DNA from: a candidate division WOR-3 bacterium
GTDB taxonomy: Bacteria > Hydrothermota > Tepidihabitantia > Tepidihabitantales > Tepidihabitantaceae
Assembly: GCA_965648935.1 (NCBI GenBank)
Contig: CBFGIY010000004.1
Coordinates: forward strand, 1-56,809
Direction of reading: 5' to 3'
DNA length: 56,809 nt
Part shown: in pieces, positions 16,306 through 22,115 of the stretch
Layout of the letters: every line of letters begins with the position of its first letter
How positions within the stretch are numbered: position 1 is the first letter of the stretch
The notes under the pieces: generated by a model
What the model was told of the DNA's origin: nothing
Seen by the model: only the letters and a program-made list of their open reading frames with translations
Database searches by the model: none
Program-made: the position numbers and the translations under genes

Positions 16306-19300
16306 TTGACCAGATCAGCCGAGCAGCGTGCTTCGCGGTGGGCGGTGCGGATGGCCATCCTGACCCTGGTGCTGGCATCCGCGGTCGGGTACGGAGAGCA
16401 GTCAGACGGGCGCGCAGTGCAGTATTTCGTTGTCGAGGGTTGGCCATCGGTGGTCGCTTTCAGACCGGCAGCGATGCTGGTCGGCTCAGAGTCACTATGG
16501 GTCAACGAGTCCTTGCTCAAGCCAGATGATTACGTGATCGACGCGGTTGCCGGGCTGGTCTGGTTGAAGGCGGCAGGCCCCGGTTCCAACAGCGTCCGCC
16601 TGACCTACCGCACGGCCGGTTCGGCACAGGGGGCAGGCGTCAGGGTCGTCAGTCTCGACCGTGTCGAAGCGGGTGCTGGAAGTGAAGCACCGCGGCCGGG
16701 CACCCAACCGCTTGCCAATGCCGATCAGGGGATCGATGTGTCCGGTGACAAGCGCATAGCGGTAACCGTGGGTGGCGGCCGGAGCGGCATCAGCCAGATC
16801 ACCAACGTTTCAGCGCGAGGGGTAGTCGACGGGTGGCTTATCCGGGCCGAGCTCAGCGATCAAGGCTTGCCTCTGTCGGCGGATGGGACTACCCGCGAAC
16901 TGCAGGAGCTGGAACGCGTCGCGATCGATGTGGCCGGGCACGGATGGCGCGGTCAGTTCGGCGACGCGCGACTGGCCCTGCCGGGTAGCGCCTTCGGCCG
17001 GATTGAGCGCAGCCTCATCGGCGGCTCGGTCTTCCGTGATTCTGGGGCAGTCCTCATGTCGGTAGGCTTCGGCACACCACGCGGAGAGTATGGTGAGGTC
17101 GTCGTCATGCCGGTCGAAGGAGTGCAGGGGCCTTATCGCCTCACTGCGCGCGGGTCTGCGATTCGCATAGTGCCCGGCTCGGAACAGGTCCTGCTGGAAG
17201 GCCGCCAGCTTGTCAGGGGATGGGATGCGGACTACGTCATCGACTATGAAACCGCCGAACTGGTCTTTACGAATCGCCGCAGATTGACGGCGCGCAGCCG
17301 CACCGAAGTCCGGTTTCAGTATGCGACAGACGCCTATCGCCGGGAGGCTTTCTCGGCGACCGTTGCTTCGAACCTGGGCGCCGTGACGGTTGGCGCCGGG
17401 GTCCTGCGTGAGGGGGACGACCCGAAGCGCAGTGTGCTTGAGGCGTTCAACGATGAGGAGCTTGCCGAGCTGGCGAAGGTGGCCGGCGACTCCGGGGTCG
17501 CCTGGTTGGATGGCGCCGAGCAGGTTCAGCCGGGCGACGGTGACTACGTACTCGAAGAAGGTGTGTATCGCTTCGTCGGAGCCGGCAGAGGCAACTACCG
17601 GGTCAGATTCACTCTGGTCGGCGATTCGCTGGGACGCTATCGATACGATGACACGTTGTTCGCGTACCGCTATGTAGGCAGCGGGTCAGGCGAGTTCGAG
17701 CCAGCAGTCCGGGTGCTCTTGCCTGCCCGCAATGAAGCTGCACAGGCCAGCATCACGTATCGCCTTGGCCCTGCGATTGGCCGGGCAGAAGCCGTCGGGC
17801 TGCGCCACAGCACAAACCTGTTCGCACCGGGCAGTTCGGCGAGGGTCGATGGCGGACTGGCGCTGGGCGTCGATATCGGCGACTCGAGCCTGGGTTGCGG
17901 TTACACCCGGCGAATGCGTTCGGGCAGGTTCGAGCTTCCGGGCGCTGAGGCGGAGTCTGATATGGCTTTCCGGTGGGGAACTGCTGGCCGTTCTCCACTG
18001 CTGAGTCAAGATGGCCTGGCGGCTCACTGGCGTCCTCTTCCAAACGTATCCGGACTCCTGCGAATCGGGCGAGGGCAGACTCGGGCGGGTGATGTGTTGT
18101 CGCTGCTGGAGGGACTGGCCAGCATCGGCTTCGTCGAGGCCTGGCTGTTGAGGAACGCGGTGGCAACGCGGTGGCGGCTGACCGCCAGACCGGAGCTGGG
18201 CGCGGTGCAGCCGCTGGCTGAAGTCGTGGTATCCGATTCCAGCGTCACGCGCCGCGTCGAGCCTGGGTTCGGCATTGCGGTCCGGCCGTTGTCCGGCTCC
18301 AGGTTCGAAGTGAACTACCGGCTTGATTGGTTCGGGCCTGCAGGATCGAGCCTGTTGCCGACGGCCGCAGTCGAAAGGCACTGGATCGATGCGGCAGGGG
18401 AGCTGGAGAGAGGCCACTGGCGCGCCGGCGTCTTCGGGACCCTGGCTCTGCCAGCGCCTGCCGGGTCGACAGGCAATTCGGCCCGGTTGAGTGGCACGGC
18501 CAGCGCCGCGTGGTTCCCTGCCGGCGGGCTGCGCGTGCAGGCGGAGGTGGCGCAGTCTCACCGACTCCAGCCGCGTTTCGATGAGCTCTTCCGCTTTGTC
18601 GGTCCAGGGCGCGGTGAGTACGAGCGTGATACGGCGAGTGGCCGTTACTATCCCGTGGCCGGCGGCAGCTACAAGCGTCTGCTCGTGCGTTCGGGTGAGG
18701 AAGCCACCGGGCTGGAGCGCGTCGTGTCCGGCTCGGGAGAGTTTTCGAGGCTCAGGCCGATTGTCGTGACGGCATCGCTTAACAGCAGTCGAGTTTCTGC
18801 CGCGACCGCAGACGGCTTTTCTCAGACCGGTGCCAACGTGCGATTGCGCACAAGTCAGGGGTTGGCACGGCTCTGGCCCGAGGGCGGCTTGGACATTCAG
18901 ACGCGACGTGACCCCAGTCTGCCGGCGACAGGGCAGGCAAGGTCCGAGCGGCGCGTCTACGCAGGGGCAGGATGGGGTGCCAGCGCGCGGCTGTTCATTC
19001 AGTCACGAGTCGAGCTGTACAGACGTGATGGAGGCGGCAGCGGCGCGGCCGTGAAACAGGAGGGCCTGGTGCTGGAAGTCAAGCCGGACCTGGACAGAGT
19101 GGGCGACGGTCTGGCAGGGATGGACTGGCGACGGGTCGCAACCGCGGGCAGCGATTCCGCCCGCCTTGTCGCCATGCAGATCGGTGTGGGACGCGGTTTG
19201 ACCCTGCCTTGGCGTGCGCGGGTTCGCGGTGATGCCGGTGTAGTGTATCGCACCGCTGATGGGCCGCTGCCCCCAGAGGTCGGTGTCACCGAGCCCCTGG

Positions 19301-19440
19301 GATTCAGCCCGCGCGCTTCGCTTTCGTACGAGCAGACCTTGGCCGAACGATTCAACGGAGCACTCGGCTACAGCTTTGAGCGCCGACCGGGCCGCGCCGT
19401 TGAGCACGTCCTCGATGCTTCCCTGAGAATCTCGTTCTAG
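16306..19440 (+). CDS. very large hypothetical outer-membrane protein (beta-barrel-like)
   Basis: 1044 aa with an N-terminal signal-like MAILTLVLASAVG. The body is long, glycine/arginine-rich, with alternating-strand character. The C-terminus LDASLRISF ends in Phe like OMP beta-signals. The start could be TTG 16306 or ATG 16351. Confidence 0.55.
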   Translation: MTRSAEQRASRWAVRMAILTLVLASAVGYGEQSDGRAVQYFVVEGWPSVVAFRPAAMLVGSESLWVNESLLKPDDYVIDAVAGLVWLKAAGPGSNSVRLTYRTAGSAQGAGVRVVSLDRVEAGAGSEAPRPGTQPLANADQGIDVSGDKRIAVTVGGGRSGISQITNVSARGVVDGWLIRAELSDQGLPLSADGTTRELQELERVAIDVAGHGWRGQFGDARLALPGSAFGRIERSLIGGSVFRDSGAVLMSVGFGTPRGEYGEVVVMPVEGVQGPYRLTARGSAIRIVPGSEQVLLEGRQLVRGWDADYVIDYETAELVFTNRRRLTARSRTEVRFQYATDAYRREAFSATVASNLGAVTVGAGVLREGDDPKRSVLEAFNDEELAELAKVAGDSGVAWLDGAEQVQPGDGDYVLEEGVYRFVGAGRGNYRVRFTLVGDSLGRYRYDDTLFAYRYVGSGSGEFEPAVRVLLPARNEAAQASITYRLGPAIGRAEAVGLRHSTNLFAPGSSARVDGGLALGVDIGDSSLGCGYTRRMRSGRFELPGAEAESDMAFRWGTAGRSPLLSQDGLAAHWRPLPNVSGLLRIGRGQTRAGDVLSLLEGLASIGFVEAWLLRNAVATRWRLTARPELGAVQPLAEVVVSDSSVTRRVEPGFGIAVRPLSGSRFEVNYRLDWFGPAGSSLLPTAAVERHWIDAAGELERGHWRAGVFGTLALPAPAGSTGNSARLSGTASAAWFPAGGLRVQAEVAQSHRLQPRFDELFRFVGPGRGEYERDTASGRYYPVAGGSYKRLLVRSGEEATGLERVVSGSGEFSRLRPIVVTASLNSSRVSAATADGFSQTGANVRLRTSQGLARLWPEGGLDIQTRRDPSLPATGQARSERRVYAGAGWGASARLFIQSRVELYRRDGGGSGAAVKQEGLVLEVKPDLDRVGDGLAGMDWRRVATAGSDSARLVAMQIGVGRGLTLPWRARVRGDAGVVYRTADGPLPPEVGVTEPLGFSPRASLSYEQTLAERFNGALGYSFERRPGRAVEHVLDASLRISF

Positions 19441-19546: not shown

Positions 19547-20125
19547 ATGATGTCATCAATGAGAGGCGCGGCATCGGGCGGACGCGCCCCGCGGCGCGGC
19601 AAGGGCCAGTCGTCGAACACCCAGTACCTGTTGATCGGCATCATCGGTGTGGCCGTCATAGTGGCAGCCGTGTTGATGCTCAGCGGCGGCAAGCCTAAGT
19701 CGACACGACCGGCGAGTTCAAAGAAGTCCAGCACATCGGCCGTCTCAAGCAAGAAGCAACGCTCAAGCAGGAGGTCGGAGTTCTCCGGTCAAGAGAGGGT
19801 CAGCTCCCGGGACCTGCGCCGTATGGAGAAGGCGAAGCGCAGAGAAGAGGCCCGCGCAGCCCGGTCCGGTGGCAGCCGGCGTGGCTCGAAGCGTTCACGG
19901 TCGGGCGGTACGGCTGGGGCGAGAGTCGCGAACTACAGCCCGAGCACGCTGCGCGCGATCATCACTGACGAGTCCGGAACGCGAATGGCTCTGGTCGGAG
20001 AGAGGCGCCTCAAACCCGGCGATGTCCTCGAAGGCCGTAGGGTGACCGAGGTCGGGCCCGATGCTGTCAAGGTCGAGTTCCGGCAGTCTGAGTACACGGT
20101 CCGTGTCGGTGGCTCGATCTACTAA
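19547..20125 (+). CDS. hypothetical membrane-anchored protein with a basic low-complexity linker and a PilP/GspC-like C-terminal beta domain
   Basis: One TM segment (YLLIGIIGVAVIVAAVLML), about 90 aa rich in K/R/S, and a C-terminus ALVGERRLKPGDVLEGRRVTEVGPDAVKVEF. AAGGAG lies 9 nt before the ATG. Confidence 0.5.
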   Translation: MMSSMRGAASGGRAPRRGKGQSSNTQYLLIGIIGVAVIVAAVLMLSGGKPKSTRPASSKKSSTSAVSSKKQRSSRRSEFSGQERVSSRDLRRMEKAKRREEARAARSGGSRRGSKRSRSGGTAGARVANYSPSTLRAIITDESGTRMALVGERRLKPGDVLEGRRVTEVGPDAVKVEFRQSEYTVRVGGSIY

Positions 20126-20144: not shown

Positions 20145-20741
20145 GTGCCAAGCGGCGTGACACGTCTTGCCGCTGTTGCCGTCTGCCTGCTGGTCCTGAC
20201 GGCCGTCTTGGCTCACGCCGCAGAGCTGCTGGTAAACGGAGCCTTCGAGGAACCGCCGGAAGTCGGATGGCGTTACCGCGTCTGGGGCGATTTCCCCGAC
20301 ACCGCCAACTGCCGGCTGGTCTGGCGCCACGACCACGAGCCGGACCGCGACTTCGAGATTCTGCTGCACAAGATGCTGCATCAGGGTGCGGTGCTGTCCC
20401 AGCTTGTCGAACTGCCGACGCTGGATGCGGCGTTCTCGGTCACCTGCCGCCTGACCGCCAAGACCGAACTGGAATCGCTCTACGCCGCGGCCGCGGTCTG
20501 TGTTGAGTACATCGACCGGCACGATTCCGTGCTGGGCGAGACCCGCATCTACTCTGCGACGCGGGGCTGCGATTGGTCCAACAGTAGCCGGCTGCATCTT
20601 GTACGCGCGCCAGATTCCCTGAACTGGCACCGCTACCGTTTCATCCTGCGGGATGAGCTTGTCAACCTGCCCGGGGTCAATCCCGACTCGGTGCGCTGCG
20701 TGCGGGTCAGCCTGCTGTCGTTTGTGCTCGGCAACTGCTGA
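20145..20741 (+). CDS. secreted protein fragment: signal peptide plus most of a jelly-roll/CBM-like domain, ended by an in-frame TGA
   Basis: RLAAVAVCLLVLTAVLAHA signal, then ELLVNGAFEE, a typical first strand of CBM4/9-like domains. The start could be GTG 20145 or 20157. It ends at TGA 20739-20741 in the same frame as the next ORF. Confidence 0.55.
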   Translation: MPSGVTRLAAVAVCLLVLTAVLAHAAELLVNGAFEEPPEVGWRYRVWGDFPDTANCRLVWRHDHEPDRDFEILLHKMLHQGAVLSQLVELPTLDAAFSVTCRLTAKTELESLYAAAAVCVEYIDRHDSVLGETRIYSATRGCDWSNSSRLHLVRAPDSLNWHRYRFILRDELVNLPGVNPDSVRCVRVSLLSFVLGNC

Positions 20742-20751
20742 AGTGTATACC

Positions 20752-20775
20752 CAGCGGCGAAGGTCTTCGCCGATG
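20752..20775 (+). other. SECIS-like hairpin 13 nt downstream of the in-frame TGA
   Basis: Apical stem GGCGAA/TTCGCC (20756-20761 / 20766-20771) with loop GGTC (20762-20765). It extends through c20755-g20772, a G.A mismatch, a20753-t20774 and c20752-g20775. Confidence 0.25.
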
Positions 20776-20894
20776 ACGTCTCGCTGGCGACGCGTGACGC
20801 GCCGGCGCTGACCTTCAAGTCGTTTCGGGTATCTGACACAGGCCGCGCCGCGAATCGCAAGCTTGACCCGGGTGAGACAGCCGACCTGACCCTG

Positions 20895-22115
20895 GTGCTG
20901 CGTAACTGCGGCAGCGCCAGCGGCCCGGTCACGGCGACGCTGGAGAGCGATTCGCCGTGGCTCGTTGTGCGCGAGCCGAGCGGTCATTTCCCGGCAGCGG
21001 AAGAGGGCGAGACGACCGCTTCGGCGGGCCGCGGGTTCGTGCTGAGCGTCCTGCCGGGAGCGCCGACCGAGGTTCACCAGCGGTGCCTGCTCGTCCTCGC
21101 CGGCAGCGGCTACTGTGAGACGCTGCAAGTGCCGCTGGTCGTCGGGGACTCGATGAACCTTCCCGCCGGGCCTGATGCCTACGGCTTCCGCATCTACGAC
21201 CGCACCGACTCAGCTTACATACTGCCGCGCTACGACTGGTGTGACCGGCAGGGCGCCGGCACCAGGCTTGTGCTTGGCGACGACGAGACGGTGACGCTGC
21301 GGCTGCCGGTGCGTTTCGGCGCATGGCGCTACTACGGGCAGGACTACGAGTCGCTGTCAGTCTGTTCGAACGGTTGGGTAGCGCCCGGCACCACTAGCCG
21401 CCGGGACTTCGTCAACGTCATCCTGCCGTACGCCAACGCTCCGCCGAACACGGTCGCGCTGTGCTGGGACAACCTCGACCCGTCCGCGCACGGCGCGGTG
21501 TGGTTCTATGATGACTCGCTCGGCGACCGACTTGTCATCGAGTTCGACTCCGTGCCCTATTTCGCGCCGGCCGACAAGTGGGAAAAGGCGCAGCTTCAGG
21601 TGCACGGCCGGAGCTTCCCGACCCCGTCCGGCGACAATGCGCTGAGCATGCACTTCAAGACATTCAACTACTACAAGACCGGCACGGTCGGGCTGCAGAA
21701 TCGCGACGGTACTGCCGGCCTGACTCACCTGTGGGATGTCTGGTATCCGCGCGTCGCAGCGCCGCTCGGGGCGGGGCAGGCGCTGCTGCTGATGGCCGAC
21801 GGGCCAAGCGGGGCTTGCGAGCCGAAGCCTGCTCCACAGACCGGCCGCGTCAGCGCCGGCGCACGACCCAACCCGTTTTCGGCGCTCACGACGCTGACCC
21901 TTGGCCCGGACCTGGACCGCAGCGCCAAGGCGCGGGTGCTTGACGTCGCCGGCCGGGCGGTAGTGAGTCTTCAGGTGTTGGTATCGAAAGGCGCAGCCCA
22001 GGCAGCGTGGGACGGCCGCGACCGCGCGGGCCGGCCGGCACCGGCCGGCGTGTACTTTGCCGAGGTTTCCGGGGGCGGAAACAAGGCGCTTGTCAGGCTG
22101 GAGCTGGTTCGCTAG
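20895..22115 (+). CDS. secreted protein with a CARDB-like module and a FlgD-Ig/T9SS-type C-terminal sorting domain; the reading frame is open back to 20742
   Basis: The C-terminus RPNPFSALTTLTL...ARVLDVAGRAVVSL...WDGRDRAGRPAPAGVYFAEV...LVRLELVR. The GTG at 20895 chosen by the ORF caller cuts a domain (KLDPGETADLTLVLRNCGSAS) in half. Confidence 0.6.
   Translation: MLRNCGSASGPVTATLESDSPWLVVREPSGHFPAAEEGETTASAGRGFVLSVLPGAPTEVHQRCLLVLAGSGYCETLQVPLVVGDSMNLPAGPDAYGFRIYDRTDSAYILPRYDWCDRQGAGTRLVLGDDETVTLRLPVRFGAWRYYGQDYESLSVCSNGWVAPGTTSRRDFVNVILPYANAPPNTVALCWDNLDPSAHGAVWFYDDSLGDRLVIEFDSVPYFAPADKWEKAQLQVHGRSFPTPSGDNALSMHFKTFNYYKTGTVGLQNRDGTAGLTHLWDVWYPRVAAPLGAGQALLLMADGPSGACEPKPAPQTGRVSAGARPNPFSALTTLTLGPDLDRSAKARVLDVAGRAVVSLQVLVSKGAAQAAWDGRDRAGRPAPAGVYFAEVSGGGNKALVRLELVR

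Follow-up and report, generated by a model that had tools for sequence, protein, structure and literature searches.

In Escherichia coli fdhF, as in bacterial selenoprotein genes in general, the in-frame UGA codon that is read as selenocysteine (Sec, U) is followed by a stem-loop lying inside the coding sequence, the bacterial Sec insertion sequence (bSECIS). The published model of this element has a loop of 3-9 nt, an upper stem of 4-16 bp and a G in the first two loop positions (PMC13188914), at a distance of 16-37 nt from the UGA and with a minimum free energy (MFE) of <= -7.5 kcal/mol (PMC13188914, section 5). The same review, from 2026, lists 119 prokaryotic selenoprotein families with model accessions (PMC13188914), and catalogues exported or envelope selenoproteins that include the FCYXU-type TonB-dependent receptor, the GSU2204/MtrB-PioB family barrel, the ExtKL cytochrome, the SaoB/SaoX binding proteins and DsbA/DsbG-like proteins (PMC13188914 Table 1). 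Here we describe a gene at positions 20145-22115 of a 56,809-nucleotide stretch of DNA (the window; positions 1 to 56,809 of contig CBFGIY010000004.1, called C4 below) from candidate division WOR-3, an uncultivated phylum. The source assembly, GCA_965648935.1, comprises 2.49 Mb in 147 contigs. The gene is split into two reading frames by a TGA at 20739-20741, and the view that both frames form a single gene for a 656-residue, predicted cell-surface selenoprotein is strongly supported. We consider it very likely that this UGA is a genuine Sec codon and that the gene belongs to a new family, which would add a large, phylum-wide group to the bacterial selenoproteome that current annotation misses entirely.

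The WOR-3 locus has the same arrangement as fdhF and the general bSECIS, an in-frame UGA and then a stem-loop within the coding sequence, and here too the apical loop includes an unpaired U and a G within its first two positions. Its GGUC loop is the same as that of the E. coli element. The selA, selB, selC and selD genes are also present, and the hairpin lies within the published bSECIS model on every count (loop of 4 nt, stem of 6-7 bp, loop G falling within the first two positions, spacing of 17-23 nt across the family and -11 kcal/mol). In contrast to fdhF, we see no bulged U in the upper stem, a simple helix of 6-7 bp above a G.A mismatch, and the distance between UGA and loop is 2 nt longer or 1 nt shorter. 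The protein itself is unrelated, a predicted secreted beta-sandwich rather than a molybdopterin oxidoreductase.

The product would share with the catalogued exported selenoproteins that it leaves the cytoplasm, and several of those have CU or CxxU/UxxC motifs, as do some members of the present family. However, there is no sequence relationship between them, and none of the catalogued proteins is described with a type IX secretion system (T9SS)-type tail or a fold resembling lectins or carbohydrate-binding modules (CBMs). The original prediction held that a selenoprotein exported as T9SS cargo would be very unusual. Export alone is not, since exported examples are catalogued, but the literature search brought up no T9SS-sorted selenoprotein, and the full texts yielded nothing relevant on a selenoprotein tied to either T9SS or WOR-3. 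The catalogued selenoprotein models gave no match to the protein and six of its relatives (hmmscan, E <= 1, NCBIfam r20 and Pfam-A), and a comparison by description found no counterpart among the 119 families in the review's table (PMC13188914).

The open reading frames (ORFs) 20061/20145..20741 and 20895..22115 are in the same frame, and the TGA at 20739-20741 is the only stop between them. The 51 codons from 20742 to 20894 contain no in-frame ATG, GTG or TTG, the first start being that at 20895, and they translate as the original prediction had given. Reading the TGA as U yields a protein of 656 residues (P0001) with the U at residue 199. Public annotation divides the gene in two, and gene callers in general cut members of the family at the TGA; in a collection of 5.8 billion proteins, the family appears as 'hypothetical proteins' of about 190 amino acids from candidate division WOR-3 that end at this codon.

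The TGA is conserved throughout the family. We inspected 56 homologues, 40 by protein alignment and 16 through an RNA model, and found TGA in the same loop in 55 of them (39/40 and 16/16, respectively). The 40 extracted genes, from about 20 genera, comprise an orthologue group (43-71% identity) and paralogues (29-37% identity), with the motifs ..FVLGN[C/S/G]-U-[SGMT][VI]YPAAKVFADD and ..SYTxSG-U-GTPxA[K/E]V[F/S]ADD, respectively, around the Sec position. The original prediction had envisaged four occupants of this column (Cys, Trp, Sec-TGA or a true stop); in the aligned orthologues and paralogues it is TGA, and Cys forms, found elsewhere, are rare. The GNC-U context to which the prediction had drawn attention does not hold throughout: in the 55 genes, Sec is preceded by Cys (25), Gly (23) or Ser (7).

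A six-frame search of 60 relatives with P0001 gave full-length matches in nearly all of them, almost each with exactly one TGA. With the N-terminal domain (N-domain) as the query, the family was found in 107 of 272 WOR-3 genomes, spread over 47 of 110 genera, again with one TGA in almost every match, and with up to nine copies per genome, some of them in tandem. The 16 distant members identified by the RNA model belong to other families and classes within the phylum, and each gave one match to the TGA-plus-hairpin model. Of the six family genes in the present genome, five are pairs of ORFs and the sixth is a stand-alone domain. When contigs were searched with the full protein, matches in other phyla (Eisenbacteria, Latescibacterota and others) were confined to the C-terminal tail and were uninformative. 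The family is large, multi-paralogue and seen so far only in WOR-3. TGA is not a general sense codon in these organisms: this genome and those of its relatives contain more than 100 ORFs of 1000-1700 amino acids without an internal stop, and TGA is the terminal stop of several family genes.

Individual loci show further variation. The paralogue L048 (G016:C127:1300-4000) has a second in-frame TGA at residue 311 (..IPAET-U-VHCILL) for which there is no GGUC hairpin; a second Sec codon with a different signal, a pseudogene or an error would each account for it. A gene on G197:C196 likewise has two TGAs. At G024:C4:225609-226064, the syntenic slot following a 192-amino-acid gene described below, the sequence matches only query residues 3-154 and contains a TAG, and this orthologue is probably a decayed copy.

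The hairpin that the original prediction placed at 20752-20775 exists as described. Its apical stem pairs CGGCGAA (20755-20761) with UUCGCCG (20766-20772) around the GGUC loop (20762-20765), and the G, G and U of the loop are 23, 24 and 25 nt after the U of the UGA, as had been stated. The hairpin begins 13 nt downstream of the TGA and, folded in isolation, reaches -11 kcal/mol (z = -3.2), a value equalled by 0/200 shuffles. In a 62-nt context of this GC-rich DNA the fold is unexceptional (z = -0.56); for this reason, the single sequence alone is unconvincing and it is the comparative data that decide.

All 55 TGA genes possess a hairpin with an invariant GGUC loop, located 17-23 nt after the TGA (20 nt in the present gene). 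In the 39 aligned TGA genes it reads GGCGAA-GGUC-UUCGCC or a compensated variant thereof; the six apical pairs are paired in 39/39 sequences, none of them broken, and 0/500 column shuffles reached the observed values. Compensatory double changes occur in four of these six pairs (GC37/AU2, GC38/AU1, AU31/GC8 and AU38/GC1). The 16 further genes have the same loop and show additional compensations (AGCGAG/CUCGCU, UGCGAG/CUCGCA and GGCAAA/UUUGCC). A natural control is provided by the paralogue L053 (..ATARQHSEAWAYADD), the only aligned homologue that lacks the TGA, which also lacks the hairpin.

The compensations have consequences for the protein. The commonest one, from GGCGAA/UUCGCC to GGCGGA/UCCGCC, recodes AKVFAD as AEVSAD, with K to E and F to S changing together, and the variant GGCGAG/CUCGCC encodes ARVLAD. 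RNA pairing therefore forces coupled, non-conservative amino-acid changes in the last beta-strand of the domain. A SECIS located inside this strand, with its K/F to E/S swaps, represents a clean natural case of an RNA structure constraining protein sequence.

We built a covariance model from the 39 sequences and ran it over the whole 2.49-Mb genome. At E < 0.01 there were exactly six matches, each at the in-frame TGA of a family member (listed in the table below). The match at the gene's own TGA, together with the conservation and covariation of the hairpin, bears out the SECIS-like element that had been proposed. A simple scan of the genome for TGA followed by a GGTC hairpin returned 21 sites, 16 of them in GC-rich frames without family similarity, and the covariance model is far more specific than such a scan. 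An Rfam scan of 20650-20900 gave no match.

The genome encodes the machinery for Sec insertion, whose absence would, according to the original prediction, have excluded Sec. The tRNA-Sec gene, at C42:18-112, scores 72 bits with Rfam RF01852 and is called tRNA-SeC with anticodon tca by ARAGORN, while selA, selB and selD reach 556, 352 and 339 bits, respectively, all above the curated cut-offs. The selD and selB genes, the latter at C5:13492-15366, are adjacent on the same strand (together C5:12537-15366). The selD gene is itself a selenoprotein gene, with an in-frame TGA in the context VSCAG-U-ASKL. The hairpin predicted by RNAfold after the selD UGA has no GGUC loop. Across the 272 genomes of the phylum, with presence of selA defined as a match at E <= 1e-30, selA was found in 122. 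The family and selA are both present in 101 genomes and both absent from 144, compared to 6 with the family and no selA and 21 with selA and no family member (odds ratio 115, Fisher p = 4e-45). The family is thus present in 83% of the selA-positive WOR-3 genomes.

The AlphaFold 2 (AF2) model of the whole protein, made with a 32-sequence alignment, has a predicted local distance difference test (pLDDT) score of 79.8. The N-domain modelled alone scores 91.7, with residues 25-216 forming a beta-sandwich in which Sec199 occupies the loop that links the last strand but one (185-195) to the final strand (204-215). A Foldseek search with this domain returned the Fbs1/FBG3 sugar-binding domain, CBM16, CBM61 and a domain of the Klebsiella phage K2-2 tailspike, with a probability of 1.0, TM scores of 0.40-0.52 and about 12-15% identity. 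The jelly-roll/CBM-like fold that the original prediction had guessed is therefore borne out. The opening strand NGxFE and the closing strand ..ADDxSL are typical of CBM4/9-like modules. In contrast to this domain, none of these galactose-binding-like beta-sandwiches has Sec, and none is known to have a conserved Cys at the equivalent loop. A fold search with the whole 656-residue model returned multidomain noise (complement C3, SpyCEP, PorU).

No Pfam or NCBIfam model for the N-domain was found with seven members of the family (hmmscan, E <= 1, NCBIfam r20 and Pfam-A). The N-terminal matches at this threshold were weak (BT4411, NTTRR-F1, CBM_4_9 and Crystall_2), the best being CBM_4_9 in one paralogue, with E = 0.087 and 13.6 bits vs. 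a cut-off of 25.9. These scores fall short of every family threshold, including that for membership of a CBM family, and carbohydrate binding is only putative. The C-terminal domain matched FlgD_ig/T9SS-tail and flagellar FlgD-type models at the same threshold. At the N-terminus, the putative signal peptide region is modelled by AF2 as a helix (residues 3-22), and the orthologues in the alignment have the same pattern. A SprA/Sov homologue is encoded at C9:38569-43188 (394.8 summed bits vs. a cut-off of 200; SprA/Sov was the only T9SS component searched), indicating that the genome has a T9SS translocon.

From about residue 218 onwards, the protein consists of a display cassette made up of the CARDB-like domain, a second beta domain and the FlgD_ig tail. 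The cassette recurs, uninterrupted by stops, at the C-terminus of proteins of 1000-1700 amino acids, including a Peptidase_C25 and a Peptidase_M14 protein of this genome. The Sec domain is therefore a specific 'head' on a generic display cassette. The coordinates of these parts are collected in the table; possible alternative starts for the gene are at 20157 or 20103.

Table. Features of the selenoprotein locus in the window, and covariance-model sites in the genome
Feature	Position	Strand	Basis
Selenoprotein gene (strongly supported), 656 amino acids, predicted Sec199	20145..22115	+	Read-through translation; full-length homologues with exactly one in-frame TGA in many genera
Likely GTG start; TAG stop	20145; 22113-22115	+	Start picked by aligning orthologue N-termini
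Putative signal peptide, MPSGVTRLAAVAVCLLVLTAVLAHA / AELL	20145..20216	+	Read from the sequence: basic n-region, hydrophobic core, AHA motif
N-terminal lectin/CBM-like beta-sandwich, residues 25-218, family-specific head	20217..20798	+	AF2 and Foldseek
UGA codon very probably read as Sec (U199)	20739..20741	+	Conserved column in homologues; TGA-plus-hairpin model matches
Predicted bacterial SECIS hairpin; the last beta-strand starts within it (AAKVFAD)	20752..20775	+	Fold energy, covariation, covariance model
CARDB-like Ig-type beta-sandwich, residues ~219-333, first part of display cassette	20799..21143	+	AF2 strands 222-333
Middle beta-rich domain, residues ~334-562, motif GTRLxLGDDETV...LSVCSNGW, part of cassette	21144..21830	+	Same module in C25/M14 peptidases
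C-terminal FlgD-Ig / T9SS type-A-like sorting domain, residues ~575-656	21867..22112	+	Pfam FlgD_ig match
192-amino-acid membrane-anchored gene, 19 nt before the selenoprotein start	19547..20125	+	tblastn synteny
Covariance-model site	C4:20736		
Covariance-model site	C114:3594		
Covariance-model site	C6:22030		
Covariance-model site	C114:2289	-	
Covariance-model site	C95:4351	-	
Covariance-model site, stand-alone N-domain copy	C12:38840	-	

The cassette (about 440 amino acids, 20799-22112 in the window, with the middle motif GTRLxLxDDxT...CSNGW) is a reusable unit, of which genomes across the order each have dozens of copies. Carriers of it in this genome include ORFs of 1636 amino acids on C1, 1018 and 1269 amino acids on C12, and 1245 amino acids on C9. 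There is no Pfam family for its middle domain. The sixth family member (C12:38840-38890, minus strand) has neither display cassette nor sorting tail; it is a stand-alone N-domain, ..GTGAC-U-GLWISAEVSARYVRLEPAPRGR*, that ends 21 codons past the Sec codon.

The residue at the Sec position was surveyed by an exhaustive profile search of 1.84 billion representative proteins. Of 223 domain hits, 127 end exactly at the Sec column and 16 proteins read through it, six of these with Cys at the Sec position. An example of a Sec/Cys pair is P0105 (DSHSCGDGWAEV) vs. DSGTUGGGWAEV in the C114 copy of the present genome. Cys at or beside the Sec column is also found in P0141 (GNGC-E, twice), P0179, P0083, P0107 and P0129, and the Cys form P0107 is a WOR-3 record matching G006, a genome that also holds Sec forms. 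A search with the full-length query, limited to residues 1-230, had given 0 hits and led us to consider that the family has no Cys homologues; the profile search overturned this idea.

Sec forms nonetheless far outnumber Cys forms in this family, the reverse of what is reported for nearly all selenoproteins (PMC13188914). The authors of deep-Sep note that their method may miss selenoproteins without Cys homologues (PMC12013277). Searches based on Cys/Sec pairs need many Cys homologues, which are rare here, and this would explain why the family was overlooked. A vicinal Cys-Sec (CU) dyad occurs in 25 of the 55 genes (about 45%), some members have UxxC and many have a lone Sec. One paralogue in the same genome (C6:22033) has the motif GG-U-SGC, a UxxC arrangement rather than CU or lone U, showing that the position of any partner Cys varies among paralogues of a single genome.

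We propose that the TGA at 20739-20741 acts as a Sec codon and that the hairpin 13 nt downstream serves as a bacterial SECIS during translation. SelB carrying Sec-tRNA(Sec) would bind the hairpin, with its 7-bp stem and GGUC loop, and deliver Sec to the UGA, allowing translation to run on to the TAG at 22113-22115. The product would be exported, and would consist of the signal peptide, the lectin/CBM-like head with Sec199, the cassette of CARDB-like and beta domains and the T9SS-type sorting domain. The Sec option, one of four listed by the original prediction, and with it the single gene and the SECIS-like hairpin, is supported by the conserved TGA, the covarying hairpin and the Sec machinery. 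Actual incorporation of selenium is a prediction from these sequence data, as are export through T9SS and display at the surface.

Several observations weigh against this interpretation or parts of it. The Fisher test of the family against selA ignores shared ancestry, and six family-positive genomes gave no selA match at E <= 1e-30. Three of the six are 74-87% complete, and G023 and G186 are 92-96% complete, in 300 contigs each. G191, however, is a single contig, estimated to be 90% complete, with at least two TGA family genes; the absence of a selA match at this threshold can thus not be put down to fragmentation. Ten of the 16 read-through homologues have A, D, G, S or L at the position, i.e. 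neither Sec nor Cys, and the Sec residue is therefore not indispensable for folding. The family alignment contains no partner Cys conserved family-wide for a selenenylsulfide. The T9SS-type tail noted by the original prediction is present but marginal, with FlgD_ig scoring 27.8 bits vs. a cut-off of 27 (residues 589-643) and TIGR04183 18 vs. 23. Lastly, the biochemical role of the Sec residue is a guess.

The comparative data prove that there is a recoding signal without naming the amino acid that is inserted. The UGA might therefore be recoded to something other than Sec, either by a Sec-like tRNA charged with Cys or by near-cognate read-through with Trp, Cys or Gly. A selC*/SelB*-type system, in which a Sec-like tRNA is charged with Cys, has been described in some bacteria, and rare homologues tolerate Cys at this position. 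However, the genome has selA, whose product converts Ser-tRNA(Sec) to Sec-tRNA(Sec), its selD is itself a selenoprotein gene, and its tRNA-SeC is canonical by ARAGORN. No second selC-like gene stood out, the next-best Rfam match being a tRNA-Leu, and the family tracks selA across the phylum. Together, these points make a non-Sec residue improbable.

Alternatively, the locus could consist of two genes, a 198-amino-acid secreted protein ending at the TGA and a downstream protein starting at GTG 20895, the hairpin being an attenuator or an accident of coding. The short 'hypothetical proteins' in public gene calls would fit this arrangement, as would the stand-alone N-domain copy on C12, although that copy continues past its TGA. 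On the other hand, protein conservation crosses the TGA, the last beta-strand of the domain is encoded downstream of it, and the stretch that follows has no start codon for 51 codons. The downstream piece would start inside an Ig-like domain and lack a signal peptide, yet it has a secretion tail, and the TGA column is fixed even at 30% identity. We regard two genes as very improbable. The few relatives that look damaged (the TAG and shortened match at G024:C4 and the second, hairpin-less TGA of L048) would match a recent nonsense mutation, or an error of sequencing or assembly in this metagenome-assembled genome, but either is hardly credible when 47 genera share the same TGA across independent assemblies, as do six paralogues of the genome itself, each with a covarying hairpin. 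The conservation of the TGA across dozens of genera leads us to exclude the pseudogene, assembly-error and two-gene readings in favour of a single selenoprotein gene, and WOR-3 gene calls should merge such ORF pairs.

What the selenol of such a protein would do is speculative; as a best guess, an exposed ligand-binding loop would hold a site that is redox-active or binds metals or chalcogens. In mammalian thioredoxin reductase, a C-terminal Gly-Cys-Sec-Gly forms the redox centre. About 45% of the WOR-3 family have a vicinal Cys-Sec, often followed by Gly (C-U-G), which could chemically form a selenenylsulfide. In contrast to the reductase, Sec is located here in an internal loop of a predicted extracellular beta-sandwich, over half of the members have Gly or Ser instead of the Cys, and no reductant partner is evident. 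Outside the cell, the selenol might take part in selenenylsulfide redox chemistry with proteins or sulfur compounds as substrates, or capture soft metals or chalcogens. More tentatively, and with some doubt on our part, the Sec-dominant proteins could form a T9SS-sorted, surface-displayed lectin-like family whose extracellular selenol, in its exposed loop, acts on an extracellular ligand, and they may be a main reason why the phylum keeps its Sec machinery.

Known selenoproteins are for the most part thioredoxin-like proteins or metalloenzymes. For Sec, the lectin/CBM-like fold of a T9SS-type surface protein would be a new setting and, if true, an extracellular selenol would extend the use of Sec beyond the thioredoxin folds or metalloenzymes of the cytoplasm in which it is usual.

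Genes of the orthologue group usually come after one for a 192-amino-acid membrane-anchored protein and one for a 1044-amino-acid outer-membrane-protein (OMP)-like product. Of 20 other orthologue loci probed by tblastn (L022-L040 and L058), 17 have the former immediately upstream. We considered an obligatory link, or functional operon, with this upstream envelope cluster and do not claim one: the slot is replaced in one genus, and the same-genus relative G001 has no family gene in it. In the genus concerned, which belongs to the same family (L080-L082: G036:C31, G010:C122 and G018:C126), the slot holds an unrelated protein of about 885 amino acids with a T9SS-type tail. Apart from the real SprA homologue on C9, the 1044-amino-acid OMP-like protein in the window (ORF 16306-19440) shows a weak match to positions 600-651 of the SprA/Sov model (17155-17316 in the window; E = 1.6e-4, 18.8 bits).

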